Source: Bacteroidales bacterium (lineage in GTDB: Bacteria; Bacteroidota; Bacteroidia; Bacteroidales; UBA1402). Taken from it: DNA of 64,000 bases. How positions within the stretch are numbered: the stretch's first letter is position 1; each line of letters opens with the position of its first letter. Of this stretch, positions 22,431-52,570 are shown in pieces. Under the pieces are notes generated by a model that had not been told where the DNA came from, searched no databases, and was given only the letters and a program-made list of their open reading frames with translations. The stretch covers positions 72,708 through 136,707 of the forward strand of contig DASTGN010000009.1 in the NCBI GenBank assembly GCA_035719105.1, in the 5' to 3' direction. A program made the translations under genes and the position numbers.

Positions 22431-22518
22431 TGGTCAAAATCGTTTAATTACTACAAATATAGAGCCAAAAACTCGCTTTGTCAAACGTTCGGAGAATTAA
22501 TGTTACCTTTGTGCTAAG

Positions 22519-35445: not shown

Positions 35446-35499
35446 ACGTTGGCTTGAAAATTTTGTCAAAGATACGGAATGTTTGCTAAATTTGCCTTT

Positions 35500-37992
35500 A
35501 TGAAAAGGACAATTTACACCATTATATATGTCTTTCTGGTTGTTTTCGGTTCTGTTTTGAAAGTTCATTCTATTCCTGCCATCCGAAAACCAATTGAAGT
35601 AATCCAACCCGACGGTACGAAGTTGACCCTCTTGTTGAGTGGGGATGAATACTTGCATATTGCTCAAACCGAAGATGGCTATGATCTGAAGCAAAACGAG
35701 GCGGGTTTCTATACCTATGCAACTAGAGACGCGGAAGGCAAGCTGATTTCCAGTGATCGAATCGCTCGCAATTTGGCCGACCGCTCCGATTCGGATGCGA
35801 CATACCTTCGTACGATCCGTTCCGACGTCAAGTTTTCTGGAACGGTATTAAATAAAGCGTTGCAAAAGCGTATGAGTGCCCGCTTGAAGGGTAGTACCTT
35901 TTTACGGAGCAGTTCCAGCATTCCTGCGGGTTTGATTGCAGATTATCCCAGAACTGGATCTCCAAAATCCCTGGTCATCCTAGTTAATTTCTTGGATATA
36001 AGCTTTCAAACCAACAACAACAGTTCAGCTTTCAACGACATGTTGAACAAACCCGGATACAACGTCAACAAACATGTGGGCAGTGTAAAAGACTATTACA
36101 AATACAATTCCGGCGGATTATTTGATCCGAATTTCGTCGTTGTTGGTCCGGTAATCGTTCCTCATTCAGAATCTTATTACGGCGCAAACGATTCTCTAGG
36201 CAACGACAAACGTCCTGCTCAAATGGTTTATGATGCTTGTGTAAAGGCAGCAGATTTGGTGGATTTCGCCGAATTTGACGCTGACGTCAATGGGACTGTG
36301 GACAACATCTTTATTTACTATGCAGGCAAAGGTGAAGCAGACGGAGGTGGTGAAAATACGATATGGCCACATTCCTTTTCATTATCAAACGCCGGTTTAA
36401 ATTTGACGTTGGATGGTAAAAAAATTGATGACTATGCCTGCAGTAGTGAATTGGATGGTTTTACCGGAAAAATGACCGGCATAGGTGGGTTCACACACGA
36501 ATACAGCCACATACTGGGGTTGGCGGACATGTATGATGTGGATTACAATCAATACAATGGACAGGGCTTTGACTTGAATTACTGGTCGTTGATGGCTTGG
36601 GGTTCTTACAACAACGAATCTTGTACACCGCCCTGTTTGTCATTGCCTGAACGCTATTTGTTGGGGTGGGCCACTCCTACCGAACTGGATCCCTCACAGA
36701 CGGTGACATTGTCTGACTTTGGGTCCACCAATAACGGCTGTATGATTAAAACAGATAATGACGGTGAATATTTTCTTCTTGAAAATCGGCAGCAAACCAA
36801 GAATGTTTGGGATGCCTATTTGCCTTATCACGGGTTGCTTATCTACCACTTGGATTTAAGAACGGATCAAACCCTCTTGGTTAATTACTGGGGAACGACG
36901 TATTCGTTTCGACCGAGTGAAATGTGGAGGTACAATGTCGTCAATGCGGTGGCCAATCACCAATGTTGCGACCTGGAAGAAGCGGACAATCAGCGTTTGT
37001 TTAGAACCGGAAGCAACGAAACCAGTTATTTGAACAATTTAAAAGGTGATCCGTTTCCAGGAACAGCAGGAATCACTCAATTTACAGATTATTCATTGCC
37101 TTCAATGAAGTCTTGGAGTGGCGCAAACCTTACTAAGCCCATAACTGCTATCACGGAGTCGAATGGGGAGATACAATTTAAATTTAAGGATTTTTCTGGT
37201 TTTAACAAATCGCCGACGATATTGGCCGCCACTGAAGTTTGGCCCTATTCATTCACGGCATTGTGGAATTCTGTCAATAATGCCACTGGGTATTTCATTG
37301 ACGTTTTCACCTTAGACAAATCTAAAAATCCGTATGAGAAGGTTTTTTTGAGTGATTACCAAAGCAGATTGGTTACCGACACAGCTTTATCGGTTGTGGT
37401 ACCAGACGACTTGACCACCTATTATTATCAGGTTAGAGCTACGATCAACAATCAACTTTTCACAGTCCTCTCCGATAGCATGTCTGTGACGACGACGGAT
37501 GGAAAACCTGTAGCCCTGCCGGCCACTTTGATTGAGCCGTTTACGTTTAAAGCCAATTGGAATTCACCCCAGTATGCCACTGGATTTTATTTGGACGTTT
37601 TTTCAATTGATGAAACAACCAACGACACCTCCTGGACTGCGGGCTATCACAATTTATTCTTGACTAAGAACTTTCAGACCATCCGTGAACTGGATGACCA
37701 AACTTCCTATCGATATCGAGTACGGGCAACGAACGGAATAACCATTTCCAGAAGTTCTGATGAAATGCGTTTGACGACCGCCAAAGCTTCCGGAATTCTA
37801 GCATATGTATCTGATAGAGTATTGAATTTGAAGGGAATGGACAAGGGTGGAAAAGTGTTGATTCATTCTTTGGATGGGAAGTTGGTCCTGACCTCTTTTT
37901 CCAATCGAATCTACCTGGGCCGACCCGGCATTTACCTCATCACAGCGTCCTTCAATGGCAAACTAAAACAATTGAAGCTACTGGTTCCTTAA
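35500..37992 (+). CDS. Secreted M6 (immune inhibitor A-like) metalloprotease with FN3-like repeats and T9SS C-terminal sorting domain
   Basis: The zinc motif is HEYSHILGLADMYD. Two FN3-like repeats are present (FTALWNS, YYYQVRA; FKANWNS, YRYRVRA). The C-terminal ~80 aa beta-rich domain ends in KLKQLKLLVP. Confidence 0.8.
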   Translation: MKRTIYTIIYVFLVVFGSVLKVHSIPAIRKPIEVIQPDGTKLTLLLSGDEYLHIAQTEDGYDLKQNEAGFYTYATRDAEGKLISSDRIARNLADRSDSDATYLRTIRSDVKFSGTVLNKALQKRMSARLKGSTFLRSSSSIPAGLIADYPRTGSPKSLVILVNFLDISFQTNNNSSAFNDMLNKPGYNVNKHVGSVKDYYKYNSGGLFDPNFVVVGPVIVPHSESYYGANDSLGNDKRPAQMVYDACVKAADLVDFAEFDADVNGTVDNIFIYYAGKGEADGGGENTIWPHSFSLSNAGLNLTLDGKKIDDYACSSELDGFTGKMTGIGGFTHEYSHILGLADMYDVDYNQYNGQGFDLNYWSLMAWGSYNNESCTPPCLSLPERYLLGWATPTELDPSQTVTLSDFGSTNNGCMIKTDNDGEYFLLENRQQTKNVWDAYLPYHGLLIYHLDLRTDQTLLVNYWGTTYSFRPSEMWRYNVVNAVANHQCCDLEEADNQRLFRTGSNETSYLNNLKGDPFPGTAGITQFTDYSLPSMKSWSGANLTKPITAITESNGEIQFKFKDFSGFNKSPTILAATEVWPYSFTALWNSVNNATGYFIDVFTLDKSKNPYEKVFLSDYQSRLVTDTALSVVVPDDLTTYYYQVRATINNQLFTVLSDSMSVTTTDGKPVALPATLIEPFTFKANWNSPQYATGFYLDVFSIDETTNDTSWTAGYHNLFLTKNFQTIRELDDQTSYRYRVRATNGITISRSSDEMRLTTAKASGILAYVSDRVLNLKGMDKGGKVLIHSLDGKLVLTSFSNRIYLGRPGIYLITASFNGKLKQLKLLVP

Positions 37993-38001
37993 ATTTATTT
38001 T

Positions 38002-41000
38002 ATGAAAGACACCCTTCGAAAAATCGTTGATCTATTTTTTTCCATGGTGACGACCGTTGTGCTATTGTTGTTTTACGCATTTGGAATCGGTTATGCGACT
38101 TTTGTTGAAAATGCACAAGGCACCGAAGTAGCCAAAGCATTGATATACAACGCACACTGGCTGGAATGCGTCTATCTGTTGTTGGTTGTCAATTTAATTG
38201 GCAGCATCTTCAAATACCAATTGGTACGTAAGCAAAAAAGATCGATTTTGGTCTTCCATTTGGCATTTTTATTAATGCTCACCGGTGCTGGCATCACTCG
38301 GTTTAACAGTTCTGAAGGTTTGATGCACATTCGGGAAGGGCAGTCCAGCAACGAAATTAGTTCAGACAAGACTTCACTTCATATTGAGGCATATGCTGGT
38401 AACCAACGGGTTGAACGAAGCATAGAAACACAAATCAGTGAGAAATCCAAGACTTCCTTAAGTGAATCTTTGGAAGTGGGTGGAAAAACCATTACTGTTG
38501 AAAAGGAATTTTTCGTTCCGAATGCTTTTGAAACGATTGTGCCCGACCAGGAAGGGGAACCCGCCATCTCTCTATTTGTTTTGGATCAAGCGAACAACAG
38601 ACTGGATGGTATTTTGACCAAAAACAAACGAATCACTTTCCAGGATTTGACAATCGCTTTCTCTGATTCTGCAGCCTCAGCCGATGTGGTTTTTTCAGAA
38701 ACCAAACAGGGTGTTCAATTTGTTTCGAATTTGCCCGTTTCTGAAATGGGTATGATGAATCACAGTCAAAAAATGTATCAGTCGGGGCAACCGATTTTGG
38801 TTGTTGCCAAGACCTTATATACCATCAATCACCTGGTTTTGGTAATTAAGACGTATCTGCCCCAAGCCAAAATCAATCTGACTCAAGCTGTTCCAGGAGC
38901 TGATGCATCGGGTATAATGCGAGAAGGAAGAGATGCTGTCGTTTTTAAAGTCAGCGATGGCAACCAGGTGAAACGGATGAATGTGTTCAGCGATTCGAAC
39001 CCTTTGACTGAAGCTTCAAGCAGTCGGTTGGGGGACGTGAGCGTTCGTTTGTCTTATGGAGTCATGCCAAAATTGCTTCCATTTAGCATCAAGTTGCGTG
39101 ACTTTGAATTGGAGCGATATCCAGGTTCCAACAGCCCTTCATCGTATGCGAGTGAAATCACGGTGATTGATCCGGAGCGCAAAATGGTGCTGCCTTATCG
39201 GATTTTCATGAATAACATATTGAATTACAGAGGCTATCGCTTCTTCCAATCATCTTATGATCAGGATGAGCAAGGCACGATCTTATCGGTGAGTCACGAT
39301 TACTGGGGCACCCTGATCACGTATGCGGGCTATTTGATGTTGATCATTGGATTGATTTGGACACTATTCAACAAACAGAGCCGTTTTCGGACTTTACTGA
39401 AATGGAGCAGTGAACTTCAAAAGAAGCGTCAAAAAGTTTTATTCGTTTCACTGATGCTGATAACTGTTGGAGCTCAAGCGCAAACGGTGACCAAGAATCA
39501 GCATTTGAATCAAGTCGACCGATTGCTTGTTCAGGATATGAATCAAGGTCGAATTGAACCGTTCAGCACGTTTGCTTCGGATGTTTTTCGTAAGATCTCT
39601 AAAAAGACGGGTTACCATCAAGCCTCGCCTTCTGAAGTGTTGATTGGTATGATTTCAAATCCCTCTTATTGGCAAAACGAACCCATTATCAAGGTTTCCA
39701 ACGATAAATTGGAAAAGGAATTGGGTGGTATAAACGGTTATGTGGCTTTCAATCAATTGTTTGACTTTGAAAATGGAAATGCCTACAAGCTCAGTGAAAA
39801 GGTGGAAACGGTGTACCATAAGGAACCAACCTTGAGGGACAAATACGACAAGGAGATTTTGAACGTCGATGAACGGATTAATATCTGCTACGAAATTTAC
39901 ACCGGTGCCCTACCCGCTTTCTTGCCTGTTATAGGTCAGCCGGGAGCAAAATGGACTACTCTTTCAGGCGAAATGACGACTGCCCAAACCATGACCCCTT
40001 TGTTGCATCCTTACCTGGTTGCCGTATCGCAAGCATCTAAAACCGGGAATTGGCAACAAGCTGATATCGCACTTCAAAACATTTTGAATTATCAACAGCA
40101 AAACGGAGGCACGATACTGCCATCCAACACACAAATAGGTTTGGAAAAGTTCTACAACGAATGGAATATTTTTGGACTATTGGCAAAGATTTACGCCATG
40201 CTTGGTATGGTGTTGCTCCTGATGCATTTGTTTTACATCTTCAACACAAAAAGCAGTTTAGGGTTCGTTTTGGAAAAGTCCGTTTACCTATTTTGGTTGC
40301 TTTTCGCCTTATACACCATAGGTTTAGGTATTCGTTGGTACATTTCGGGGCACGCTCCCTGGAGCAATGGTTATGAGTCCATGATTTTTGTCGGATGGGC
40401 AACATCCTTGTCGGGCATTGTGTTTGCAAAACGTTCAACCGTCTCACTGGCAATCACGTCGGTGTTGGCAGGTATTATTCTGTTCGTAGCAGGTATGAGC
40501 TGGATGAACCCGGAAATCACGCCCTTGGTTCCAGTATTGAAATCGTATTGGCTCATCATTCATGTCGCAGTAATCACCTCCAGTTATGGATTCCTGGCCA
40601 TGGCTGCTTTACTCGGCTTGCTGAACTTAAGCTTGATGGTTGCACACGCAAAGGTTCGTACGGAACGATTGAGCGATAGTATTTTAGAAATCAGCTACAT
40701 CATTGAACTGGCGATGATCATTGGATTGATGTTGCTGACAGCCGGCTGTTTTATCGGTGCCGTTTGGGCAAATGAGTCGTGGGGACGTTATTGGGGCTGG
40801 GATCCCAAGGAAACCTGGGCATTAGTGAGCATCATCACCTACACCGCCATCTTGCATCTAAGAAACGTTCCTGCCGCCAACAATCGATGGGTATTGAGCA
40901 GTCTGTCGGTATTAGGGTTCAGCACCATTATCATGACCTTCTTTGGCGTTAATTATTACCTGACCGGTATGCACTCTTACGCTCAAGATAGCCCACCGGC

Positions 41001-41094
41001 AATTCCAAAGGCTGTATATTTAGTTGCTGTCGGCATCTTCGTACTGATTGCTTTTGCATACAGGGCGTATAAAAAGGAAATCAAGAATTTATGA
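38002..41094 (+). CDS. ccsBA: Fused system II cytochrome c biogenesis protein CcsBA (ResB-like plus CcsA-like)
   Basis: The protein is 1030 aa. The N-terminal ResB-like part has TM helices and a large periplasmic loop. The C-terminal part has many TM helices and the WWD motif WGRYWGWDPKETWA. Confidence 0.88.
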   Translation: MKDTLRKIVDLFFSMVTTVVLLLFYAFGIGYATFVENAQGTEVAKALIYNAHWLECVYLLLVVNLIGSIFKYQLVRKQKRSILVFHLAFLLMLTGAGITRFNSSEGLMHIREGQSSNEISSDKTSLHIEAYAGNQRVERSIETQISEKSKTSLSESLEVGGKTITVEKEFFVPNAFETIVPDQEGEPAISLFVLDQANNRLDGILTKNKRITFQDLTIAFSDSAASADVVFSETKQGVQFVSNLPVSEMGMMNHSQKMYQSGQPILVVAKTLYTINHLVLVIKTYLPQAKINLTQAVPGADASGIMREGRDAVVFKVSDGNQVKRMNVFSDSNPLTEASSSRLGDVSVRLSYGVMPKLLPFSIKLRDFELERYPGSNSPSSYASEITVIDPERKMVLPYRIFMNNILNYRGYRFFQSSYDQDEQGTILSVSHDYWGTLITYAGYLMLIIGLIWTLFNKQSRFRTLLKWSSELQKKRQKVLFVSLMLITVGAQAQTVTKNQHLNQVDRLLVQDMNQGRIEPFSTFASDVFRKISKKTGYHQASPSEVLIGMISNPSYWQNEPIIKVSNDKLEKELGGINGYVAFNQLFDFENGNAYKLSEKVETVYHKEPTLRDKYDKEILNVDERINICYEIYTGALPAFLPVIGQPGAKWTTLSGEMTTAQTMTPLLHPYLVAVSQASKTGNWQQADIALQNILNYQQQNGGTILPSNTQIGLEKFYNEWNIFGLLAKIYAMLGMVLLLMHLFYIFNTKSSLGFVLEKSVYLFWLLFALYTIGLGIRWYISGHAPWSNGYESMIFVGWATSLSGIVFAKRSTVSLAITSVLAGIILFVAGMSWMNPEITPLVPVLKSYWLIIHVAVITSSYGFLAMAALLGLLNLSLMVAHAKVRTERLSDSILEISYIIELAMIIGLMLLTAGCFIGAVWANESWGRYWGWDPKETWALVSIITYTAILHLRNVPAANNRWVLSSLSVLGFSTIIMTFFGVNYYLTGMHSYAQDSPPAIPKAVYLVAVGIFVLIAFAYRAYKKEIKNL

Positions 41095-41765
41095 ACCGAT
41101 ACCTTCATATAGCTCTGATCACCTTTTATTTTTTGGTGGTGGTAGTGGTCTTATCTTTGCTCATCTACTTTGGACTATCCTACTATCAATTGCCCATCGA
41201 GGAACGTTTTTTTCATCCCATGTACCAAATGTTGAAACCAAGCGGCTTTCTGGGTCATGGTTATGGAGTGTTTGGAACCTTGCTGATTGTAATCGGCTTG
41301 TTTTCGTACATGGCTAGGAAGCATCTGCGAATCTTTTGGGGTCTCGGTTTGTTGAAGCATTGGTTGGAGTTGCACATTTTTCTCTGCACGTTGGGTACCG
41401 AGCTCGTTGTTTTTCACACTACATTCAAATTTGGCGGACTAGTCTCTGTTGGATTCTGGAGTCTGATGATTGTGTGGTTCAGTGGTTTGATCGGCCGGTT
41501 CATCTATATTCAAATTCCATTGTCGATTGAGGGTAGAATGCTTAGTATTCAAGAGGTTCAAGAAAAAATTGAGAATTTGGAATCGGACCATCAAGATGAA
41601 AGGTTGCTCAAAAAATTGAGAAGGCAAGTAAAACATTTGGGAAGAATGAAACGAGTCTTTAAACGTTGGCATTACGCTCATTTGCCCTTTGCACTTATCA
41701 TGCTGATTATAATGATGATACACGTATCGGTGGTTTTAGTCCTGGGTTACAAATGGATTTTCTGA
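41091..41765 (+). CDS. Hypothetical polytopic membrane protein with histidines in or near TM helices
   Basis: It has about 5 hydrophobic helices. His residues occur at GHGYG, KHWLELHIF, VVFHT, WHYAH and MIHV, and there is a long charged helix. The ATGA overlap with ccsBA suggests translational coupling. Confidence 0.6.
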   Translation: MNRYLHIALITFYFLVVVVVLSLLIYFGLSYYQLPIEERFFHPMYQMLKPSGFLGHGYGVFGTLLIVIGLFSYMARKHLRIFWGLGLLKHWLELHIFLCTLGTELVVFHTTFKFGGLVSVGFWSLMIVWFSGLIGRFIYIQIPLSIEGRMLSIQEVQEKIENLESDHQDERLLKKLRRQVKHLGRMKRVFKRWHYAHLPFALIMLIIMMIHVSVVLVLGYKWIF

Positions 41766-41769
41766 AAAT

Positions 41770-43098
41770 ATGAATCAACTGATTGAATGGGGCATTTATG
41801 GCGGTGTTTTTCTGCTTGTTACATCGGTTCTTTTGGTGTACATCCTGAAGCAACGTCGCGAATCGAAGCGTTCGACAGAGAAATTGAGTATTGCCAAGGA
41901 AGAAAACTCGCATGAACCCGTTTCCATTTATCCTTTTATTGACCCGGATCGTTGTTTTAAGAGCGGTGCATGTGCCATGGCTTGTCCGGAAACCGACGTG
42001 TTGGGCATTCGACATGGCCGGGCAGTGCTTATCAATGCTTCCCATTGTGTAGGACACGGAGCATGCATGAGAGCATGTCCGGTAGAAGCCATTTCCTTGC
42101 GAATCGGAACAGAAAAAAGAGGGGTAGACCTGCCTCATCTGAATCCCAATTTCGAAACCAACGTCAAAGGCATTTATGTCGCTGGCGAATTGGGCGGGAT
42201 GGGTTTGATCAGAAATGCTGTAAAACAGGGCAAAGAAGCGGTAGACAACATTCACCATGCCATCAATAAGAAAATAGATGCGGAATTTGATTTAATCGTA
42301 GTCGGTGCCGGACCTGCCGGCATTTCGGCAACATTGCAGGCTATAAACTTGGGAATGAGCGTGTTGACTTTAGAACAAGACACTTTGGGTGGAACCGTGT
42401 ATACCTTCCCAAGGTCAAAAATTGTAATGACAGCACCCATGGACTTACCCACTTACGGCAAAGTTAAATGGAAAGAGACGACTAAGACGGACTTGTTGGA
42501 ACTTTGGCATAAGGTTCTATCAGCAAGGCACATACAAATTAAGGAAAGCACAAAAGTTATTGGAATTGAATCACAAAACGGTGCTTTTCAAGTCAAAACG
42601 AACGAGAATCAGTCTTATACATCCAGAGCTGTTTTATTGGCAATTGGTCGAAGGGGGTCCCCACGAAAATTGAACATTCCTGGTGAGTTATGTGAGAAAG
42701 TAGCCTATCGTTTGCTTGAACCCGAAGAAATCACCGGTAAACGCATCGTCGTAGTCGGTGGAGGGGATTCAGCCATTGAAGCTGCACTTGCCCTGGCGGA
42801 TCATAACGAAGTCATTCTCTCCTATCGTGGCGAGGCATTTAATCGAATTAAAGCAGGCAATGCCCGAAAAATAAGCGATGCAATCAAGACTGGGTTAATA
42901 CCAGTTTTATTCAATTCAAACATTATTTCCATCGAAGAGCATCAAGTTCGTTATAAATTGGACGAATCGGATACCATTCATGAGCTGGAAAACGATTTAG
43001 TGTTTATATTTGCCGGAGGGGAACTTCCTGTTGAGTTTTTGAAAAAAGTGGGTGTACAGGTTACCACCAAACGAGGCGAAACAATTCAAAAAAGCTGA
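41770..43098 (+). CDS. Membrane-anchored 2x[4Fe-4S] ferredoxin-domain FAD/NAD(P)-dependent oxidoreductase
   Basis: The N-terminal TM helix is followed by KQRRESKR. The ferredoxin motifs are CFKSGACAMACP and CVGHGACMRACP. The dinucleotide folds are LIVVGAGPAGISA and IVVVGGGDSAIEAA. Confidence 0.8.
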   Translation: MNQLIEWGIYGGVFLLVTSVLLVYILKQRRESKRSTEKLSIAKEENSHEPVSIYPFIDPDRCFKSGACAMACPETDVLGIRHGRAVLINASHCVGHGACMRACPVEAISLRIGTEKRGVDLPHLNPNFETNVKGIYVAGELGGMGLIRNAVKQGKEAVDNIHHAINKKIDAEFDLIVVGAGPAGISATLQAINLGMSVLTLEQDTLGGTVYTFPRSKIVMTAPMDLPTYGKVKWKETTKTDLLELWHKVLSARHIQIKESTKVIGIESQNGAFQVKTNENQSYTSRAVLLAIGRRGSPRKLNIPGELCEKVAYRLLEPEEITGKRIVVVGGGDSAIEAALALADHNEVILSYRGEAFNRIKAGNARKISDAIKTGLIPVLFNSNIISIEEHQVRYKLDESDTIHELENDLVFIFAGGELPVEFLKKVGVQVTTKRGETIQKS

Positions 43099-44688
43099 AT
43101 GAAAAAACACTTTCTGCTTTCTATTTGTCTTCTAAGCATTTTCACGCTGTCCGCTCAGATATCTCCGGGTGAATTAAGCAATGCTCACGCCAATCTGGAA
43201 GGGGTAAGCAATTGTACCAACTGCCACACGGTGGGCAATAAAGTGACTAACGATCATTGTTTGGCCTGTCATCCGGAAATTCGCTCCAATCAAGCTACCA
43301 AAAAGGGATATCACGGTTCCGTCGATGTAATGGGGAAAAATTGTTTCGCTTGCCACAACGAACATCATGGTCGCACCTTTCGGTTGATCAATTTCAATAA
43401 AAAAACGTTTGATCATCGAAAAACGGGCTTCGAGTTAAAGGGGGTGCACGCTACGTTGGATTGCCAGAATTGTCACCAGGCTGAGCACATTGCCAATGTC
43501 AAACTGAAGCAGAAACGATCCACCTATTTAGGTTTAAACAAAAACTGCCTGACTTGCCACGATGACTTCCACCAAGGTAACATGTCGTCGAACTGTTTGG
43601 AATGTCATCGTTTTGATAGTTTTAAAAACCCAAAAGCTTTTGACCACAACAAAACCCATTTCCCTTTGCTCGGCAAGCATAAAACGTTGAATTGTAAAGA
43701 GTGTCACAAAAATGAACTTGTTCATGGGAAAATCAGACAAGGTTTCAAAAACTTGAGATTTGCGAACTGCAATGCTTGTCACCAGGATGTGCACGATAAT
43801 AAATTCGGCCAAAATTGTAAGAAGTGTCATCAAGAAAATTCGTTCACCAGCATTCGAAATGATAGTGTTTTTAATCACGACAAGACTGATTTTCCACTTT
43901 TGGGGAAACATCGGCTATTGGAATGCAAGCAATGTCATCAATCGGGCAATATGACCAAACCGTTGAAACACGGTCGATGTTCAGACTGCCACCAAGACAT
44001 TACTCACCGAGGTGAATTCGCTGTAAATGGAAAGTCTCCTGATTGTGCCGAATGTCACGACAACAACGGATTCCTTCCTTCCACTTATACGGTGGAAAGA
44101 CACAATGCCTCGGCGTTCAAGCTTTCCGGAGCACACGAAGCAACATCCTGCATGACGTGTCACTACAAGGAAGGCAACTGGCATTTTCGTACTATCGGCA
44201 AAAAGTGTGTGGATTGTCATAAAGACGAACATCAAGGTTTAATTTCAGAGAAGTTTTATAAGCAGGCAACTTGTACCGAATGTCATAATGAATCTAACTG
44301 GAAAACGGTATCGTTTGATCACAATCAAACCAAATTCAAACTGGATGGAAAACATGCGGAACTGGCCTGCAAAGCTTGCCATTATGCTAAAAATGATCGG
44401 GGCGAAATCGTTCAAAAATTCGAGGGCCTTTCTACGAATTGCAATGCTTGTCATACAGACGAGCACGCCGGTCAATTCGAAGTGGACGGAAAAACTGATT
44501 GTGCGCGATGTCACCAAACGAGCCGTTGGAAAGACTCTAAATTTGATCACAATTCTTCACGATTTAAGCTGGAAGGGGCTCACCAGGCAGTTGCATGTGC
44601 CGAATGTCACAAATTAATATCAACTCCAAAAGGTACGTTTGTCGAATACAAATTTAAAGACATCGAATGCTCAAGGTGTCATCAATAA
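43099..44688 (+). CDS. Multiheme c-type cytochrome with 20 CxxCH motifs (c3/c7-like repeats)
   Basis: It has a signal peptide. I counted 20 CxxCH motifs by eye in 529 aa. The module FDHxxTxFxLxGxHxxxxCxxCH recurs. Confidence 0.9.
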   Translation: MKKHFLLSICLLSIFTLSAQISPGELSNAHANLEGVSNCTNCHTVGNKVTNDHCLACHPEIRSNQATKKGYHGSVDVMGKNCFACHNEHHGRTFRLINFNKKTFDHRKTGFELKGVHATLDCQNCHQAEHIANVKLKQKRSTYLGLNKNCLTCHDDFHQGNMSSNCLECHRFDSFKNPKAFDHNKTHFPLLGKHKTLNCKECHKNELVHGKIRQGFKNLRFANCNACHQDVHDNKFGQNCKKCHQENSFTSIRNDSVFNHDKTDFPLLGKHRLLECKQCHQSGNMTKPLKHGRCSDCHQDITHRGEFAVNGKSPDCAECHDNNGFLPSTYTVERHNASAFKLSGAHEATSCMTCHYKEGNWHFRTIGKKCVDCHKDEHQGLISEKFYKQATCTECHNESNWKTVSFDHNQTKFKLDGKHAELACKACHYAKNDRGEIVQKFEGLSTNCNACHTDEHAGQFEVDGKTDCARCHQTSRWKDSKFDHNSSRFKLEGAHQAVACAECHKLISTPKGTFVEYKFKDIECSRCHQ

Positions 44689-45893
44689 TGGTAGCCTTGC
44701 TGATATCAGCTCATTTATCAGGGCAATCTCCCCACGGAAATGCTTTGAGGGTGAGTTGTCATGTTTGTCATACGACAGAGAATTGGAAAGTCAAGGAAAA
44801 GGGATTCGATCACCATACTACCTCGTTTAAATTGGATGGACAGCATAAAGATGTTTCCTGCAAGACTTGCCACCCATCCTTGGTTTTTACTGATGCTCAG
44901 ACAGATTGTGCTTCCTGTCATAAGGATGTCCACCAAGAAACGGTGGGTCGAGATTGCGACCGTTGCCACAACACGACTTCCTGGATGGTCGGCAAAATAA
45001 GGGAAATCCACCGTCTGACGCGTTTTCCATTGGAGGGTGGACACGCCGGCGTAGATTGTAACCAGTGCCACAAATCGGGTTCTCGGCTTCGGTTTGACCC
45101 GATAAGTACGGAATGTGAGTCTTGTCACTTAAAAGATTACAACGCTACGACGAATCCGGCACATGCTGTAGCACAGTTTCCAACCGATTGCAAGATGTGT
45201 CACGATGAAACGGATTGGAAAAACGCTTCGTTTGATCACAATTCCACCACCAGTTTTCCTTTAAGGGGAGGGCATCTGGGACTTAATTGCAATCAGTGTC
45301 ATTCACAGGGTTTTGCAGGGACTGCAACGGCCTGCGTTGCTTGCCACCAAAAGGATTTCAACACCACCATCAACCCCTCCCATTCGGCGGCGGGGTTCAG
45401 CGCCGATTGTCAAACTTGCCATACGGAAACTTCCTGGAAACCCAGTTCGTACAACCATAACACGGCAACCAGCTTTCCATTGAACGGGGGACACCGAGCA
45501 GTGAGTTGCAATCAATGTCATACGCAGGGCTTTGTAGGAACGTCCACCGCTTGTGTGGCATGTCACCTGAAGGATTACAATGCCACGACAAATCCGGCCC
45601 ATGCCACAGCCAAATTTCCTACCAATTGCGAGACTTGCCATACGACTACAACCTGGACAACTTCCACCTTTAATCATGACAGCCAAAATTTCCCGATTTA
45701 TAGTGGAAGGCACCGCGGGCTATGGACTACGTGTACGCAATGCCACACCAGTCCGGCGAACTTTGCTGTTTTCTCCTGCATAACCTGTCATGAGCACAAC
45801 AAAACCTCGATGGATGCCAAACACTTAGGAAGAAGTGGATACGTTTACAACAGCATCAATTGTTTAAGTTGTCACCCACGTGGAAGTACGTAA
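44667..45893 (+). CDS. Multiheme c-type cytochrome with 16 CxxCH motifs
   Basis: I counted 16 CxxCH motifs. Three tandem tri-heme modules each begin with CNQCH. The start is ambiguous between 44667 and 44688, where TAATG overlaps the upstream stop. Confidence 0.88.
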   Translation: MLKVSSIMVALLISAHLSGQSPHGNALRVSCHVCHTTENWKVKEKGFDHHTTSFKLDGQHKDVSCKTCHPSLVFTDAQTDCASCHKDVHQETVGRDCDRCHNTTSWMVGKIREIHRLTRFPLEGGHAGVDCNQCHKSGSRLRFDPISTECESCHLKDYNATTNPAHAVAQFPTDCKMCHDETDWKNASFDHNSTTSFPLRGGHLGLNCNQCHSQGFAGTATACVACHQKDFNTTINPSHSAAGFSADCQTCHTETSWKPSSYNHNTATSFPLNGGHRAVSCNQCHTQGFVGTSTACVACHLKDYNATTNPAHATAKFPTNCETCHTTTTWTTSTFNHDSQNFPIYSGRHRGLWTTCTQCHTSPANFAVFSCITCHEHNKTSMDAKHLGRSGYVYNSINCLSCHPRGST

Positions 45894-45949
45894 TTTCGAT
45901 TAAAATCCTTAGATTTACAGCATTAAAATTCGATTTTTTTTTTCGACCG

Positions 45950-46975
45950 ATGCATCGATTTATTGTACTCCTTTCCATTTTGATCCTGACGTTAAATTGT
46001 TACGCCATGAAATCACCTCATGGAAAAAACTTAACATTGAAGTGTAGCGATTGCCATACCACGGAACAATGGAATGAAGTAAAACCTGAAGATTTTGATC
46101 ATCAAACGACGAAGTTTCCTTTGGTAGGCCAACATCAGATGGTTGGTTGCAAAGCATGTCATCCCACACTCGTTTTTTCGGAAGCACCAACGGAATGTTC
46201 TGAATGTCACACTGATATACACCAGCAAACGGTCGGTGCCGATTGTGCGCGTTGTCATACGCCAGAATCGTGGTTGGTAAAAAACTCTAAAAACAAGGAA
46301 ATTCATCACCAAAGTGGTTTTCCATTGGTTGGTTCACATGCTTCAGCAGAATGTCGGCGTTGTCACGTTTCAGGTTCGAATCAACGGTTTGATATAATTG
46401 ACACTGAATGTTTCAGTTGCCACCGCGACAAATACGAGGCTACTGTCAACCCAAACCACCGAACGGCGGGTTTTGGAACCGACTGCAATCGATGCCACAA
46501 TATGGTTGGAAGGCAGTGGAACGGTTCGAATCAGGGTTTTGAACATGGATTTTTCCCCTTAAAAGGTGGTCATCAGCTTGAATGTGTGCGGTGTCATGCC
46601 AGCGGCACTTATACCGGATTATCCAAAGAATGCGTTTCCTGCCATCAAGCGGACTACAACGCCACAACAAACCCGAATCACGCCGGTTCAGGTTTCTCCA
46701 CAGAATGCCAGACTTGTCACAACATTACTTCTTGGAAGGGGGCTACTTTTGACCATGATGCGAACTTCTTCCCCATTTATAGTGGCAAACACAAGGGTCA
46801 ATGGAATGCCTGTACAGATTGCCACACCAATGCCTCAAACTATGGAACTTTTACTTGCCTGAATTGCCATGCACACAGTAAAACAGCCATGGATTCCAAA
46901 CATCGGGAAGTTGGTGGATATTCTTACATCAGTTCCAGTTGCATGACTTGTCACCCACGAGGTAATGTCAATTAA
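45950..46975 (+). CDS. Multiheme c-type cytochrome with 13 CxxCH motifs, paralogous to the 16-heme protein
   Basis: The signal peptide is MHRFIVLLSILILTLNCYA. It has 13 CxxCH motifs. Its C-terminal module (FPIYSGKHKGQW, CLNCHAH, CMTCHPRG) matches the C-terminus of the upstream gene. Confidence 0.88.
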   Translation: MHRFIVLLSILILTLNCYAMKSPHGKNLTLKCSDCHTTEQWNEVKPEDFDHQTTKFPLVGQHQMVGCKACHPTLVFSEAPTECSECHTDIHQQTVGADCARCHTPESWLVKNSKNKEIHHQSGFPLVGSHASAECRRCHVSGSNQRFDIIDTECFSCHRDKYEATVNPNHRTAGFGTDCNRCHNMVGRQWNGSNQGFEHGFFPLKGGHQLECVRCHASGTYTGLSKECVSCHQADYNATTNPNHAGSGFSTECQTCHNITSWKGATFDHDANFFPIYSGKHKGQWNACTDCHTNASNYGTFTCLNCHAHSKTAMDSKHREVGGYSYISSSCMTCHPRGNVN

Positions 46976-46985
46976 TCACAGATCA

Positions 46986-48563
46986 ATGAGAAAACTGACG
47001 CTACTCCTACTTATTTGTCTGTCGACAACAACTTTTGGTCAAAAGATCATAAAGGGTTCGATTACTTTTCGGAGTTCACAAAATATCTATGTGATGTTTG
47101 AGAACACGGAAGGAATACAAGTCGGTGACACCTTGTTTTCTGAAGTGAAAGGTTGGTTGGTTCCCGTGTTGCTCGTAAAGAGTTTTTCTTCTACTTCCTG
47201 CCTTTGTGTTGCATTGAGCAAACTTAAAATGGATGAGACGGCGTTTATCCAAGCTAAAATTCCAGTTGTAGAAGAAGCGTTGCCCGTCCATCAGACTGCT
47301 GATGAATTGGAGGCCACCAAATCTGTCAATGCTGATGCAATCGGTGCAGTTCTTCAGGGCAAAAAAGTAAAAAAGCTACAACCGCAGTTTGATGGACGAC
47401 TTTCACTGACTTCTTATTCGAACCTGACGGGTGTCAATTCCAATCAGCGTTTTCGATACAACCTTTCTTTTAATGCACAAAACATAGACAGTTCAGCCTT
47501 TTCTGCAGAAAGTTATTTGTCGTTCTCGCACCGATTGGGTGAATGGAAGGGTATTACGGATGCTTTGAAGGTGTACAGTTTGGCTGTGAATTATCATTCT
47601 GGAAATCACGCTGTGACGTTGGGTCGAAAAATCAATCTGAATATGGCGAACATTGGCGCGGTTGACGGCCTCCAATATGAATACACCAGGAAAGCGTTGA
47701 CTTTTGGCCTCATGGGAGGATCCAGACCGGATTATTACACTTATGGGTTGAACCCGGACTTGCTGCAATTTGGCGCATTTGTAAGCCATCATGTTCAAAT
47801 GGACAAAGGGGATATGCAAACGTCGCTGGCCCTATTCAACCAAATGAATCAATTCAAAACGGACAGACGTTTTGCTTACCTTCAGCACAGCAACGCATTG
47901 CTTAAAAACTTGAATGTATTTGCCTCTGCCGAAGTGGATTTCTACACCCTAGTGAATCTTCAACCAACTTCAACGTTTGACTTGACAAGTGCCTATGTAT
48001 CTTTGCGGTATAAGCCATTTTCCAATTTGTCCCTCTCTTTGTCCTACGATGCCAGAAAGAACATTTACTACTATGAGACTTTTAAGAATCAGATTGACAG
48101 CATCATAGACCGTGAAACCAGACAAGGTCTGCGTTTTAATTTCAACTATAGGCCATTTAAGAAGATCGTTTGGGGTGGAAATGCGGGTTATCGATCCAAG
48201 AAATCGGATCGCACGCCTTCGGTCAATGCCAACACCTATTTGTCTTATATGGAATTGCCTTGGATTAATGCCTATGGCACATTGGATTTGACGTATTTGA
48301 AAACCAGCTACTTGAATGGTATGGTTTACGGTGCCTCCCTATCAAAGGAATTGTTTGATGGTAAAGTTTACGGGGAATTGAAATATAGGCTAGTTAACTA
48401 CGACTATACCAACTCCAGTAGCACCTTGAGACAAAACATTGCGGAATGCAGTCTTTCTTGGCGAATGGCTAAAAAATTGATGCTTTCTGTCGATTTTGAA
48501 GGAACGATGGAATCAATCGGAAATTCGGCAAGAGTTTATTTGAATCTCACCCGGCGATTTTAA
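46986..48563 (+). CDS. Predicted outer-membrane beta-barrel protein of unknown family
   Basis: The signal peptide is MRKLTLLLLICLSTTTFGQ. Alternating hydrophobic beta-strand patterns run throughout, rich in aromatics, G, N and S. The C-terminus is YLNLTRRF, ending in Phe. Confidence 0.65.
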   Translation: MRKLTLLLLICLSTTTFGQKIIKGSITFRSSQNIYVMFENTEGIQVGDTLFSEVKGWLVPVLLVKSFSSTSCLCVALSKLKMDETAFIQAKIPVVEEALPVHQTADELEATKSVNADAIGAVLQGKKVKKLQPQFDGRLSLTSYSNLTGVNSNQRFRYNLSFNAQNIDSSAFSAESYLSFSHRLGEWKGITDALKVYSLAVNYHSGNHAVTLGRKINLNMANIGAVDGLQYEYTRKALTFGLMGGSRPDYYTYGLNPDLLQFGAFVSHHVQMDKGDMQTSLALFNQMNQFKTDRRFAYLQHSNALLKNLNVFASAEVDFYTLVNLQPTSTFDLTSAYVSLRYKPFSNLSLSLSYDARKNIYYYETFKNQIDSIIDRETRQGLRFNFNYRPFKKIVWGGNAGYRSKKSDRTPSVNANTYLSYMELPWINAYGTLDLTYLKTSYLNGMVYGASLSKELFDGKVYGELKYRLVNYDYTNSSSTLRQNIAECSLSWRMAKKLMLSVDFEGTMESIGNSARVYLNLTRRF

Positions 48564-48584: not shown

Positions 48585-48627
48585 GAAAATGGCGTCCCAA
48601 TTGTTAATTTGAGACGCCATTTTGTTT
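48585..48627. terminator. Bidirectional hairpin terminator between the cytochrome cluster and araB
   Basis: GAAAATGGCGTC pairs with GACGCCATTTTG across a 16-nt loop. A/T runs lie on both sides. Confidence 0.75.
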
Positions 48628-48639
48628 ATTTACAATGGA

Positions 48640-50316
48640 TTACAAACTTCTATAGAAGGATTCTTCCGTAATTTGACCAAGTTTTTGGTATTCTTTATAG
48701 AGTTCAGCATACATCTTGGCTGCTTTAGGATTGGGAAGGTACTCCATCGCGAATCCTTGCCCCATAGCCTTTTGAGCCTCTTCGACTTTTGCATACTGAC
48801 CTGCAACGACTGCAGCAAACATGGCGGCACCAAAAGCACAAGCTTGGTCGCTTTTGGCAACTTTGATGGGCATATTCAGAACATCGGCCATGGTTTGCAT
48901 GACGAACGGTGATTTCAGGGAGATGCCACCAATACCGATGACACTTTCAATCTTGACTTGTTCCTCCTTAAAGCGGTCAACAATGGCTCTGGAGCCAAAG
49001 GCAGTAGCTTCCACCAACGCGCGGAACATCATGGGAGCAGTCGTACCAAGAGTCAAACCGGTTATGCTGCCCTTGACCAGCTGACTGGCGTCCGGCGTGC
49101 GGCGACCGTTCATCCAGTCGGTGGCAACGACCATGCTTTCTTTGGGATCGATGGCAGCGGCTTGTTCGGAAAGAACGGGAATGATCTTGTCCATGGCTTC
49201 AACCATGAGTTTTTGCTTGGTAACTTCGTCTATCAGACTGGATTGGCCGATAAGTTCCTCAATGGGCCAAGCCATGATGCGTTTGAACCAGGCGTAGATA
49301 TCTCCGAAAGCAGATTGACCGGCTTCCAAGCCCATCATTCCTGGAATGACGGAACCGTCTACTTGGCCGCAAATGCCTTTAACCAATTTATTCCCCACTT
49401 CTTCATTGGATGAAACAAGGATGTCGCAAGTTGAAGTACCGATGATGCGAACCAAGGTGTTGGGGGTGATTTCAGCACCAACAGCGCCCATGTGCGCATC
49501 GAATGCACCCACTCCTACAGCCACATTGGTGGAGAGTCCGAGGCGTTGAGCCCATTCTTCGGTGAGGTAGCCCACTTTAACATCACTGGCATATGTTTCC
49601 TTGAACAAACGGTCACGAAGTCCTGCCAACAGGGGATCCAAGGTTGTCAAGAACTCTTCGGAGGGCAGTCCGCCCCATTGTTCTAACCACATGGCCTTAT
49701 GCCCGGCAGCGCAACGACTGCGTTTCAGGTTTTCGGGACGGGTGTCGCCACAAATCAAGGCTGGCAACCAATCGCAGTGTTCAACAATGGAGTAGGCAGC
49801 CTTGCGGACCTTTTCATCGGCGCGAAGCACATGCAATGCTTTGGCCCAAAACCATTCCGAAGAATAAATACCGCCTTCGTAAGATGTGTAGTCGATTTTC
49901 CATTTGGAACAAAGTTCGTTAATCTCGGCAGCTTCCTTGATTCCGGTGTGGTCTTTCCACAACACAAACATGGCGTTGGGATTTTCGGCGAATTCGGGCA
50001 GTAATGCCAAGGGCGTACCATTTTTGTCTGTGAACACTGGGGTAGAACCCGTGGTGTCGAAGGACATGCCGATCACATTGGCTGCAACGGAAGGATCACA
50101 CTTTGCAAGTGCTTCTTTCACAGCATCTTCCAGGCACTCAACATAATCCTTTGGGTGTTGACGATATTGGTTGGCCGTAGGTTGGCAATAAAGGCCTTTA
50201 GCCCAACGGGGATAGTACTTGACAGCGTTTCCCTGTTCGGCACCCGTTTCAGCATCTACTATATAAGCGCGGGCAGAGTCGGTACCGTAATCCAATCCGA
50301 TAACATACTTGCTCAT
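48640..50316 (-). CDS. araB: Ribulokinase
   Basis: The FGGY-family N-terminus is YVIGLDYGTDS. At 558 aa it sits directly downstream of araA. Confidence 0.9.
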   Translation of the reverse strand: MSKYVIGLDYGTDSARAYIVDAETGAEQGNAVKYYPRWAKGLYCQPTANQYRQHPKDYVECLEDAVKEALAKCDPSVAANVIGMSFDTTGSTPVFTDKNGTPLALLPEFAENPNAMFVLWKDHTGIKEAAEINELCSKWKIDYTSYEGGIYSSEWFWAKALHVLRADEKVRKAAYSIVEHCDWLPALICGDTRPENLKRSRCAAGHKAMWLEQWGGLPSEEFLTTLDPLLAGLRDRLFKETYASDVKVGYLTEEWAQRLGLSTNVAVGVGAFDAHMGAVGAEITPNTLVRIIGTSTCDILVSSNEEVGNKLVKGICGQVDGSVIPGMMGLEAGQSAFGDIYAWFKRIMAWPIEELIGQSSLIDEVTKQKLMVEAMDKIIPVLSEQAAAIDPKESMVVATDWMNGRRTPDASQLVKGSITGLTLGTTAPMMFRALVEATAFGSRAIVDRFKEEQVKIESVIGIGGISLKSPFVMQTMADVLNMPIKVAKSDQACAFGAAMFAAVVAGQYAKVEEAQKAMGQGFAMEYLPNPKAAKMYAELYKEYQKLGQITEESFYRSL

Positions 50317-50318
50317 GG

Positions 50319-51821: not shown

Positions 51822-51857
51822 AGTTTTATGTTTAAATTAATTGGAATGACAAGTCGA

Positions 51858-52544
51858 TTAATCTTGACCGTAATAGGCTCCTGGGCCATGTTTACGGAAG
51901 AAATGTTTTTTGATGAGCAACGGATTCATCGTCAGGTTGGGATTAACTCCGTAAGAAATGAAAGCCATTTTGGCCACTTGTTCCACAACGACTGCATGAT
52001 GTACGGCATCGTGTGCATCTTTGCCCCAAGTAAACGGACCGTGGTTTTTAACGAGAACTGCAGGGACGTGGTTCGGATTGATTCCTTTGAATCGTTCAAT
52101 AATGACTTTACCGGTTTCTTTTTCATACTCAGCCATTTCAACCTCCGTCATGTCTCGGGTGCAAGGTATTTCCTGGCTAAAATAGTCAGCGTGCGTGGTT
52201 CCGATGTTGGGTAGGTCGAGCCCAGCCTGGGCCCATGCGGTGGCGAAGGTGGAATGGGTATGGACCACCCCTCCTATTTCTGGAAAGGCTTTGTATAGTT
52301 CCAAATGCGTGGCGGTGTCGGAGGAAGGTTTGAGTGAGCCTTCTAGGATTTTACCGTCCAGGTCGACAACAACCATTTGTTCAGCCTTCATTTTGTCGTA
52401 AGAAACACCGGAGGGCTTGATTACGACAATGCCTTTTTCACGATCGATGGCACTGACGTTGCCCCACGTGAAAATGACCAGTTCATGTTTGACCAAATCG
52501 AGATTGGCTTCGAACACTACTTTTTTTAGAGCTGCTAAGTCCAT
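51858..52544 (-). CDS. araD: L-ribulose-5-phosphate 4-epimerase
   Basis: The class II aldolase motifs GNVSA and VVHTHS are present. Length is 228 aa. Confidence 0.92.
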
Positions 52545-52570
52545 ATGTTGGTAATTAGGTCGTTATTTTT

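Follow-up and report, generated by a model that had tools for sequence, protein, structure and literature searches.

Barrels of the Geobacter Pcc type, and of the 'OmbB-like' type reported from Ignavibacteria, have 18-22 predicted strands and are encoded next to a periplasmic cytochrome (PMC4245776, PMC7399161). Besides a porin, the Pcc cluster of I. album encodes two cytochromes, one of 400 aa with 14 hemes and one that has an atypical motif (PMC4245776). 'Putative novel' porin-cytochrome clusters have been flagged in Bacteroidetes metagenome-assembled genomes (MAGs) from the hypolimnion of a humic bog (He et al. 2019, PMC6344600), and an anode-enriched Bacteroidetes MAG contains an uncharacterised cluster of cytochrome and barrel genes (Berger et al. 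2021, PMC8258643); the clusters of both studies match only hypothetical proteins of Bacteroidetes and Ignavibacteriae. Furthermore, Ignavibacteria with 40- and 33-heme cytochromes are abundant in an anode biofilm (PMC7399161). Here we report the analysis of a seven-gene cytochrome cluster (g1 to g7) in a 64,000-nucleotide stretch of DNA from a Bacteroidales bacterium (GenBank assembly GCA_035719105.1, contig DASTGN010000009.1, positions 72,708 to 136,707), which we call the window. Judging from sequence and predicted structure, we consider the chances somewhat better than even that this cluster encodes an outward trans-envelope electron conduit.

The cluster resembles those of the humic bog and the anode, as far as they can be compared by description, in phylum, in kind of habitat and in the combination of multiheme cytochromes with a predicted barrel. 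Those reports, however, neither define a family nor describe an inner-membrane module or analyse heme modules. In the literature we found no paper that defines this family, the g2-g3 module or the modular heme wires described below, and no mention of Parabacteroides sp. FAFU027, a cultured strain that carries the cluster. Nor is the cluster described in the Melioribacter multi-omics, Peterson and Prolixibacteraceae papers.

A sequence-only reading of the window had proposed seven co-oriented genes with short overlaps or gaps at this place, and the open reading frames (ORFs) were all found at the coordinates it had given, on the + strand between 38002 and 48563 (Table 1). The junction of g1 and g2 is an ATGA overlap, g4 and g5 overlap by 22 nt, and 10 nt separate the end of g6 from the start of g7. 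The public gene call begins g6 at 46007 (322 aa), at an internal Met, and thereby loses the signal peptide; the homologs back the upstream ATG at 45950 against this call.

Table 1. The cluster, the terminator behind it and accessory genes of related loci (positions refer to the window unless a related locus is named).
Feature	Position	Strand	Description
g1	38002-41094	+	1030 aa; ResB + Cytochrom_C_asm, fused CcsBA (system II cytochrome c synthase / heme exporter)
g2	41091-41765	+	224 aa, 12 His; 5-helix inner-membrane protein of an orphan family, candidate di-heme b cytochrome
g3	41770-43098	+	442 aa; N-terminally anchored Fe-S flavoprotein, putative cytoplasmic NAD(P)H-binding input
g4	43099-44688	+	529 aa; Sec-exported 20-heme c-type cytochrome, candidate periplasm-spanning wire
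g5	44667-45893	+	408 aa; Sec-exported 16-heme modular cytochrome, long class of the 'SPHG' family
g6	45950-46975	+	341 aa; Sec-exported 13-heme cytochrome beside the barrel gene, short class of the 'SPHG' family
g7	46986-48563	+	525 aa; predicted outer-membrane beta-barrel of an orphan family, C-terminal Phe
Hairpin terminator	48585-48627		Common to the cluster and the convergent araB gene
DUF2271-like proteins with type IX secretion system (T9SS) sorting, in related loci	L070: 628-1449, 11845-12618, 12639-13406; L018, L027, L028, L038, L040-L043, L054, L056, L069		

Related loci were collected in two independent samples. For the barrel-anchored sample, one genome per species was scanned with the barrel (g7) alignment, which gave 69 loci in Bacteroidales, including Paludibacter, Mariniphaga, Prolixibacteraceae and 'Parabacteroides', and in Ignavibacteriales. 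The g2-anchored sample consisted of 80 metagenome contigs. Wherever the flanking sequence suffices, g2, g3 and g4 come first in this order and the barrel comes last, with a long and then a short cytochrome, both optional, in between, all genes being co-oriented. With g2 as the anchor, g3 follows in 55 of 55 testable loci, the g2-g3 pair is followed by a cytochrome of at least 10 hemes in 40 of 40, and the barrel is present in 20 of the 23 loci with at least 9 kb of downstream sequence; in two of the three that lack it, genes for 60+25 and for 51+27 hemes push the barrel past the fetched flank. The order is thus kept from either anchor, across 70 genomes in the case of the barrel, and the synteny across Bacteroidota on which the sequence-only reading had made its proposal depend recurs in three deep lineages, Bacteroidales, Saprospiraceae and Ignavibacteriales. 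The cultured isolate FAFU027 encodes CcsBA, g2, g3, a 534-aa cytochrome of the g4 class, a 333-aa cytochrome of the g6 class and the barrel, and a Saprospiraceae MAG, which represents another class of Bacteroidota, encodes g2, g3, a 23-heme cytochrome, a 58-heme cytochrome and the barrel, with CcsBA nearby on the other strand. Hence, the cluster is conserved and widespread in Bacteroidota and Ignavibacteria and is not an accident of this genome.

The heme-binding motif CxxCH occurs 20 times in g4, 16 times in g5 and 13 times in g6, a total of 49 in 1333 aa or one per 25.5-26.4 aa, so that the counts of the sequence-only reading and its density of one heme per ~25-26 residues were recovered exactly. 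Apart from g4-g6, the six-frame ORFs of the window that have 100 aa or more contain a single CxxCH in 31,460 aa, which belongs to the RecR zinc finger, and the density of heme motifs in the cluster is therefore far above chance. The variants CxxCK, CxxxCH and CxxxxCH are absent from g4-g6, and the Pfam matches of these three proteins are to Cytochrome_C7 / Cytochrom_c3_2 (83.8 bits for g4 with Cytochrome_C7). As the spare histidines outnumber the hemes in each protein (28 to 20 in g4, 20 to 16 in g5 and 16 to 13 in g6), bis-His ligation is possible for every heme, and on this count all 49 can be bis-His electron-transfer hemes. Judged by eye, the N-termini of all three are plain Sec signal peptides. 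A Gln follows the likely cleavage site in g4, g5 and g7, a residue that is common at this position in signal peptidase I substrates of Bacteroidetes.

The heme number of g4 hardly varies. In the barrel-anchored loci it is 20 (~530 aa) in 40 of 40 complete copies, and in the g2-anchored set it is 20 in all complete copies but one (L138, 23 hemes); the Saprospiraceae counterpart also has 23. Searches of the PDB with g4 gave only weak matches, to a fragment of a Geobacter c7 polymer (3ouq, E = 0.0065), and the g6 profile found no relative there by sequence.

The other two cytochromes, g5 and g6, are paralogs (44% identical). They belong to what we call the 'SPHG' family, in which the mature N-terminus starts with SPHG and the C-terminus ends in CxxCHP. 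Nearly all loci whose sequence extends 5' of the barrel have a member of this family at that place, the exception being L035, where none was called. The short form has 11-13 hemes, and the long form, which is optional in relatives, has 15/16, 22, 25, 28, 31, 34, 37, 40, 43, 52, 58 and up to 63. Most of these numbers fit one N-terminal heme plus n triheme units of ~73 aa with a heme spacing of 33/15/25; the 16 hemes of g5 are 1 + 5x3. At the DNA level the triheme units are tandem repeats of 216-219 nt, whose copies in the window have diverged to 60-75% identity; in relatives, identity is 82-86% in L046 (6270-8759) and 92-98% in L065 (7161-7892). Such near-identical repeats indicate that the length of the SPHG heme wire is still changing, by recent or ongoing expansion. 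In L046, alternate repeat copies are more alike and form a 438-nt super-repeat.

The last gene, g7, had been described from its sequence as a signal-peptide protein with beta-barrel character and a C-terminal Phe. Its AlphaFold2 (AF2) model, built with 31 homologs, has a mean predicted local distance difference test (pLDDT) score of 76.5; in it, a small beta domain (residues 19-93) follows the signal peptide, and a linker of low confidence (95-128) leads to 22 strands (134-524). The even number of strands and the conserved C-terminal Phe are as expected of an outer-membrane barrel. The sequence-only reading had allowed that g7 might turn out to be a small porin or a member of a well-characterised family; the prediction is of a large barrel, ~22 strands with an extra N-terminal beta domain, and no characterised family was found by Pfam, NCBIfam, PDB profile or Foldseek searches. 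Pfam and NCBIfam gave no match for g7, and for 31 members at E <= 10 there were only marginal ones to DUF2490. The g7 profile matched nothing in the PDB by sequence. The structural matches found there by Foldseek were generic outer-membrane barrels with a TM-score of at most 0.46; the highest TM-scores (0.42-0.46) were those of the usher translocation pores FimD/PapC, generic porins having the better E-values. The family is large (1124 clusters at 50% identity, E <= 1e-3) and its members are labelled 'hypothetical'.

Some relatives carry only part of the cluster. It stops after g4 in L096, L090 and L112, the latter two with shorter downstream flanks; L038 and L043 are extra loci with a 12-heme cytochrome and the barrel only; and L027 and L042 contain a 20-heme cytochrome, a leucine-rich repeat (LRR) protein, a 12-heme cytochrome and the barrel without g2-g3, L042 being in the same MAG as L003, which holds another barrel locus. 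These split arrangements suggest two modules that are usually fused, one of g2, g3 and g4 and one of an SPHG cytochrome and the barrel. A b561 protein was considered as a stand-in for g2-g3 and rejected: L029, L040 and L055 have both, and in L036 the contig ends before g2-g3.

Within the inner-membrane module, g2 of the window has no match at all in Pfam or NCBIfam, and its relatives, which number in the thousands, are labelled 'hypothetical'. An alignment of 24 sequences contains seven invariant histidines (H6, H56, H95, H109, H194, H197 and H211), and the key ones are also kept in Saprospiraceae. The pairs H95/H109 and H197/H211 are each spaced i, i+14 inside helices (88-114 and 170-223) of an AF2 model that is weak (pLDDT 67). 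Cytochrome b of bc1 and the NOX-type ferric reductases have bis-His heme pairs of the same spacing. According to the positive-inside rule, the K/R-rich loops 72-89 and 135-199 face the cytoplasm, so that H95/H197 would be close to the cytoplasm and H109/H211 close to the periplasm. This is the pattern looked for in a di-heme b protein, i.e. two His pairs on two transmembrane (TM) helices with one pair per membrane face, and we infer that g2 would bind two b hemes. Marginal matches to Ni_hydr_CYTB (prokaryotic cytochrome b561) and DUF4405, at E >= 0.011, occur in 5 of the 24 members, and the g2 profile had no match in the PDB by sequence. Cytochrome b561, NOX2, NarI and Dcytb came up as structural relatives in Foldseek at noise level only and were not used as evidence. 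In length, g2 of the window (224 aa) is without ~37 residues of a charged cytoplasmic helical insert that is found in most homologs (261 aa); this short form is common to the closest relatives of the window, and the protein reaches 289-291 aa in Ignavibacteria and Saprospiraceae.

The flavoprotein g3 has one TM helix, at its N-terminus, and KQRRESKRSTEK comes after it. For this arrangement the positive-inside rule predicts a cytoplasmic catalytic part, in agreement with the sequence-only reading, and an Fe-S domain that adjoins the membrane. That reading had also assigned two [4Fe-4S] clusters and FAD/NAD(P) to g3, and here it held only in part. The Pfam matches above cut-off, Fer4_2, Fer4_10 and Pyr_redox_3 (PF13738, 142.3 bits vs 30), bear out an Fe-S flavoprotein. 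However, the ferredoxin-like domain (residues 55-110) has six Cys instead of the eight of two CxxCxxCxxxCP motifs, and is therefore not a canonical 2x[4Fe-4S] domain. Its motif 1 is C62-x2-S65-x2-C68-x3-C72-P (Cys3Ser) and its motif 2 is C93-x2-H96-x2-C99-x3-C103-P (Cys3His); both are invariant in 38 homologs, and the cluster ligands are also conserved in the Saprospiraceae genome. From these motifs, the clusters would be either [3Fe-4S] or [4Fe-4S] with Ser/His ligands. An FAD motif GAGPAG (GxGPAG), an NAD(P)H motif GGGDSA and, downstream of it, the arginines R352 and R358 are conserved. The nearest proteins of known structure are YpdA/Bdr, which depends on NADPH (7a76, 9.5e-26), and a ferredoxin-NADP reductase of the TrxR type (3ab1, 1.8e-16); neither of the equivalogs TIGR04018 (163.7 bits, cut-off 339.9) and TIGR01292 (79.7 bits, cut-off 343) was reached. 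Among the 38 homologs there is no conserved CxxC and no conserved Cys outside the Fe-S domain. Since g3 thus has no redox disulfide, its Fe-S clusters are the sole obvious electron exit.

The proposal that g1 is a fused CcsBA was borne out by ResB (PF05140, 69.6 bits) and Cytochrom_C_asm (PF01578, 139.5 bits) matches, both above cut-off, in one polypeptide, and by a WGRYWGWD (WWD) motif in its translation. With the CcsB equivalog TIGR03144 it scores 175.7 bits, slightly under the cut-off of 187.6, as expected of a fusion protein. CcsBA is linked to the cluster in Paludibacter-like Bacteroidales, in FAFU027 and, with the gene on the other strand, in Saprospiraceae; the loci of Mariniphaga, Prolixibacteraceae and Ignavibacteria show no such linkage.

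None of the seven proteins was assigned to an NCBIfam equivalog, and the models of DmsE/MtrA, HmcA, QrcA, ExtN/ExtO and the triheme 'nanowire' stayed far under their cut-offs. The sequence-only reading could not match the gene order to a characterised system, and the family thresholds for Mtr and for known reductases were not reached. The known periplasmic reductase systems Nrf, Hmc, Otr and ACIII were considered and rejected because of NCBIfam scores far under cut-off. No cut-off of a reductase or extracellular electron transfer (EET) family is reached by g4-g6, so that no orthology to a known periplasmic reductase emerged, and no molybdopterin, siroheme or copper family was matched by the cluster in Pfam or NCBIfam, as had been noted before. 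In summary, the porin-cytochrome-like conduit stands as the best hypothesis, and none of the checks made in silico overturned it.

The conduit might work as follows. Heme would be exported by g1, which would also attach all 49 hemes. In the inner module, cytoplasmic NAD(P)H would reduce the FAD of the anchored g3, from which electrons would move singly via the two membrane-proximal Cys3Ser/Cys3His clusters. If g2 and g3 form a complex, as we infer, the electrons would next arrive at a b heme on the cytoplasmic side of g2 (His95/His197), cross the membrane to its b heme on the periplasmic side (His109/His211) and be handed to the 20-heme periplasmic g4. Linear c7 polymers extend by roughly 1 nm per heme; at ~1 nm/heme, g4 could bridge a periplasm of ~20 nm. 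In the outer module, the predicted bis-His SPHG cytochromes would accept electrons from g4, one of them sitting in or against the 22-strand g7, and the electrons would cross the outer membrane through or along this barrel to the outside, where Fe(III), Mn(IV), an electrode, a partner cell or humic quinones could accept them. Physiologically, the conduit would be an electron sink that re-oxidises NAD(P)H in mostly fermentative anaerobes rather than a proton-pumping respiration; export itself would conserve no energy, while a fermenter that re-oxidises NAD(P)H could make more acetate, and with it more ATP by substrate-level phosphorylation. This role is likely if the conduit is real, and it fits both the arabinose/pectin utilisation genes next to the cluster and the anoxic habitats of the relatives, whose record titles name anoxic lake, peat, aquifer and sludge metagenomes. 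An inside-negative membrane potential aids outward and opposes inward electron flow across a transmembrane heme pair. Of the sequence-only proposal that electrons might flow in either direction, the outward half therefore appears favoured, as electrons on their way in to NAD(P)+ would face an adverse redox potential as well as an adverse membrane potential.

More specific versions of this mechanism are tentative. The cluster might be a quinone-independent, lineage-specific EET machine of the Bacteroidota-Ignavibacteriota group, with a NOX-like g2-g3, the 20-heme g4 as a 'ruler' and a single SPHG chain that threads the orphan barrel; we hold this to be possible rather than probable. In such a machine, the length of the SPHG chain might be set, with no greater likelihood, by gain and loss of the 73-residue triheme cassettes, from 12 to 63 hemes. 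Entry by direct, quinone-independent oxidation of NAD(P)H is likewise put forward with reserve.

Sister clusters in other genomes contain accessory genes, a TM + tetratricopeptide repeat (TPR) protein, DUF2271, LRR and b561 proteins, all of which are absent from the window. The TM + TPR protein is inserted between g2 and g3 in Ignavibacteria. Small T9SS-sorted DUF2271-like proteins are encoded beside the cluster in ~12 loci (Table 1), with three copies in FAFU027, and may act as partners of the conduit at the cell surface. Directly 5' of the 12-heme gene in L038 and L043, the DUF2271-like domain is fused to fn3 repeats. A BspA-type LRR protein of ~488 aa lies between g4 and the 12/13-heme gene in ~9 genomes (L023, L027, L031, L033, L039, L042, L049-L051), and one copy has, by eye, a lipoprotein-like N-terminus (...SSCDDDN). 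A genuine b561 (Ni_hydr_CYTB) is found between g4 and the short cytochrome in four loci. In FAFU027, rubrerythrin and catalase genes lie a few kb 3' of the cluster. A 252-aa predicted lipoprotein (...FICSCDSG) is encoded directly 3' of the Saprospiraceae barrel (L072:11641-12399) and has no counterpart in the window.

Several observations weigh against the conduit as drawn above. Neither an obvious lipobox (by eye) nor Por_Secre_tail, the T9SS sorting domain, is present in g4-g6, so that no surface-exposed heme protein is predicted. Homology of g2 to any known b-cytochrome family was not detectable by Pfam, hhalign or Foldseek: hhalign of the g2 family with the genuine b561 of the sister clusters gave a probability of 0.1%, and Foldseek of the weak g2 model against the PDB gave nothing below E = 1. 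Furthermore, export from NAD(P)H via a membrane-spanning b-heme pair would spend membrane potential, its energetic benefit being indirect, and the b561 of some sister clusters suggests that quinol could be the real entry point or an extra one. The last two points lead to a conduit that differs in its entry, with g2 as a menaquinol dehydrogenase (like CymA, CbcL, ImcH or the NarI type) and g3 in a regulatory, repair or side-input role. Such an entry would conserve energy upstream, unlike direct export from NAD(P)H, and it is textbook knowledge that di-heme b proteins often have quinone sites. All characterised Gram-negative EET chains begin at quinol (PMC6295460), and the added Ni_hydr_CYTB protein between g4 and g6 in some sister clusters points the same way. 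It would, however, leave unexplained why g2 and g3 are never apart, and why the Fe-S domain of g3 sits right behind the membrane anchor with no other conserved redox exit. The constant pairing, the membrane-side Fe-S domain and the lack of another exit suggest that g3 feeds g2 directly, and we regard quinol entry as unlikely, as we do the idea that g3 might keep such a chain reduced or link ferredoxin/NADPH to the pool.

Less probable still is that the whole system is strictly periplasmic, the cytochromes being an electron store or a non-specific reductase of soluble oxidants and g7 a mere uptake porin. The plain Sec signals and the lack of a visible surface-sorting signal on any cytochrome would suit this, as would the rubrerythrin and catalase genes of FAFU027, and bis-His multiheme proteins can, by textbook knowledge, reduce many soluble acceptors; chelated metals, oxyanions or O2 and reactive oxygen species (ROS), the latter for detoxification, would be the oxidants, on the same low odds. 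But neither a catalytic heme motif nor a partner enzyme was found, chains as extreme and variable as those of up to 63 hemes are hard to square with a periplasm-confined reductase, the T9SS-secreted and LRR proteins of sister clusters speak for the cell surface, and the adjacency of barrel and cytochrome in almost every locus mirrors MtrAB/PioAB/Pcc. We give little credence to g7 as a secretion or assembly pore that exports a variable-length SPHG cytochrome as a free or tethered extracellular heme wire. The ushers FimD/PapC among its matches, the extra N-terminal beta domain with its flexible linker, and the hypervariable SPHG length with near-identical tandem DNA modules, expected of a surface-exposed structure tuned to the environment, would agree with such a pore; yet the TM-scores are low, generic porins are better by E-value, no chaperone or energy-coupling partner is encoded, and the idea is a sub-variant of the export model rather than a true alternative. 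Electron uptake, i.e. an inward run of the conduit as proposed for MtoAB/PioAB, with Fe(II), reduced humics, a cathode or a partner cell as donor and NAD(P)+ as acceptor, seems the least probable of all. A dedicated outer-surface cytochrome is missing here as in PioAB/MtoAB, which are proposed for Fe(II) oxidation (PMC6344600), and porin-cytochrome conduits can be reversible (PMC8258643). However, reduction of NAD(P)+ by Fe(II) or humics would be strongly uphill, the inside-negative membrane potential would oppose inward flow through the b-heme pair, and genes for sugar utilisation lie around the cluster. In culture, members of the host genera are, moreover, known as carbohydrate fermenters; Paludibacter jiangxiensis is reportedly a propionate-producing one, to go by the title of a paper on it.

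Behind the cluster lies the terminator that the sequence-only reading had called strong and bidirectional. The hairpin has a minimum free energy of -22.8 kcal/mol (z = -4.58; 0 of 200 shuffles equally stable) and is common to the cluster and the convergent araB, which ends at 48640 (-). It was not among the calls of a consensus terminator scan that allows loops up to 8 nt, and a longer hairpin loop probably explains this miss. A Sigma-70 promoter scan (22 sites vs 23.7 expected) was uninformative, as this promoter type is wrong for the phylum. The Bacteroidetes-type promoter motif (TTTG...TAnnTTTG) is enriched over the whole window, with 11 observed vs 3.1 expected, and the sole one near the cluster (35462-35494) lies just 5' of a protease gene and not of g1. 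This gene (35479-37992, +) encodes an M6-family metalloprotease (TIGR03296 domain, 177.8 bits), is co-oriented with g1 and ends 9 nt before it. Given the position of the motif, the protease may be co-transcribed with the cluster. An M6-family protease also lies 5' of g1 in the closest relatives, L073 and L074, and does not in more distant ones.

On the far side of the terminator, a convergent arabinose utilisation block (48640-53287, -) comprises araB, araA, araD and a NUDIX/AraR-type regulator. Genes for an aldose epimerase, a DUF4861 protein, an SDR protein and KduI follow up to ~57400, and an outer-membrane protein with CarboxypepD_reg + OMP_b-brl_3 is encoded from about 57580 on (+). Elsewhere in the window, two Bacteroidetes-type promoter motifs stand back to back on opposite strands (22454-22511), between recR (21819-22430, -) and a transporter-like gene (22519-23946, +). 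The only Rfam match in the window is a thiamine pyrophosphate (TPP) riboswitch (RF00059) at 10072-10169 (-), with 65.2 bits vs a gathering threshold of 54.3, and no tRNA genes were found in it.

If an outward conduit is indeed what the cluster encodes, iron and humic reduction, and possibly electrode activity, would extend to fermentative Bacteroidales, Saprospiraceae and Ignavibacteria that are abundant in anoxic freshwater, in peat and in engineered systems, and whose role in metal and carbon cycling has so far been deduced from heme counts only. Common polysaccharide fermenters of anoxic lakes, peat and sludge would then be unrecognised iron/humic reducers. The cassette-like wires, with up to 63 hemes and repeats of up to 98% DNA identity, are a natural experiment on the length of single-chain wires. 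Also of note is that at least one cultured isolate, FAFU027, carries the cluster, which makes direct testing possible.

Among the described systems, MtrCAB, MtoAB and PioAB likewise have a multiheme cytochrome gene adjoining the gene of a large outer-membrane barrel, an adjacency that is conserved here for g6 and g7, and bis-His electron-transfer cytochromes without a catalytic site, as predicted for g4-g6. The lack of a dedicated surface lipoprotein cytochrome is shared with MtoAB/PioAB. However, the predicted barrel has ~22 strands as opposed to 26 in the solved MtrB; MtrB_PioB (PF11854) gave no match at E <= 10 in 31 members, and MtrB was not among the top 50 Foldseek matches of g7. The barrel partner has 12-63 hemes in triheme modules and not 10, the cluster scores only 21-35 bits with MtrA/DmsE (TIGR03508; g4 34.9, g6 21.3, cut-off 192.2), and the input is a flavoprotein with a putative cytochrome b and not CymA. 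The Geobacter Pcc/Ext systems (OmbB-OmaB-OmcB, ExtABCD) are similar in their variable cluster size, extra cytochromes and variable heme numbers, and the 22 strands of the g7 model, encoded beside a cytochrome, lie within the range of the Pcc barrels. Unlike them, the cluster has no outer-membrane lipoprotein cytochrome, as far as its N-termini can be judged by eye, and no quinol oxidase of the ImcH/CbcL type; the ExtN and ExtO models of NCBIfam reach 31-32 bits (cut-offs 200), and this on heme-motif stretches only. The I. album Pcc cluster is set apart, by description, by its different composition.

As for the inner module, the proposed path from NAD(P)H via flavin and two stacked b hemes to an outside acceptor, without quinone, is reminiscent of the NOX/ferric reductase (FRD) superfamily and of MsrQ with flavin reductase, as are the two helices with His pairs ~13 residues apart. 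In contrast to NOX/FRD, two polypeptides would be involved, with five helices instead of six and an Fe-S relay between flavin and heme; there is no Ferric_reduct match in Pfam, and the acceptor would be a multiheme chain and not O2, Fe(III) or MsrP. The Tmc/Hmc/Qmo complexes of sulfate reducers also combine a periplasmic multiheme cytochrome, a membrane cytochrome b and a cytoplasmic Fe-S/flavoprotein, but they send electrons inward to sulfate reduction, have HdrD/HdrA-like cytoplasmic subunits and lack an outer-membrane component; the HmcA match is 16-18 bits against a cut-off of 400. Membership of the inner module in the NOX/FRD, MsrQ or Tmc/Hmc groups was not detectable. The Geobacter c7 polymers (GSU1996 family) have in common with the cluster the repeated triheme modules in long linear chains of (here predicted) bis-His hemes, the above-threshold Cytochrome_C7 match and the weak 3ouq match; the cluster differs in its low score with the triheme-domain model TIGR04257 (21-23 bits, cut-off 40), in the ~73-aa module with its 33/15/25 spacing, and in the copy number of the module, which here ranges from 4 to ~20 and is still changing. 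Should the conduit prove real, it would join Mtr and Pcc as a third porin-cytochrome design of independent evolutionary origin, and its flavoprotein and putative cytochrome b would be a new type of inner-membrane entry for EET.

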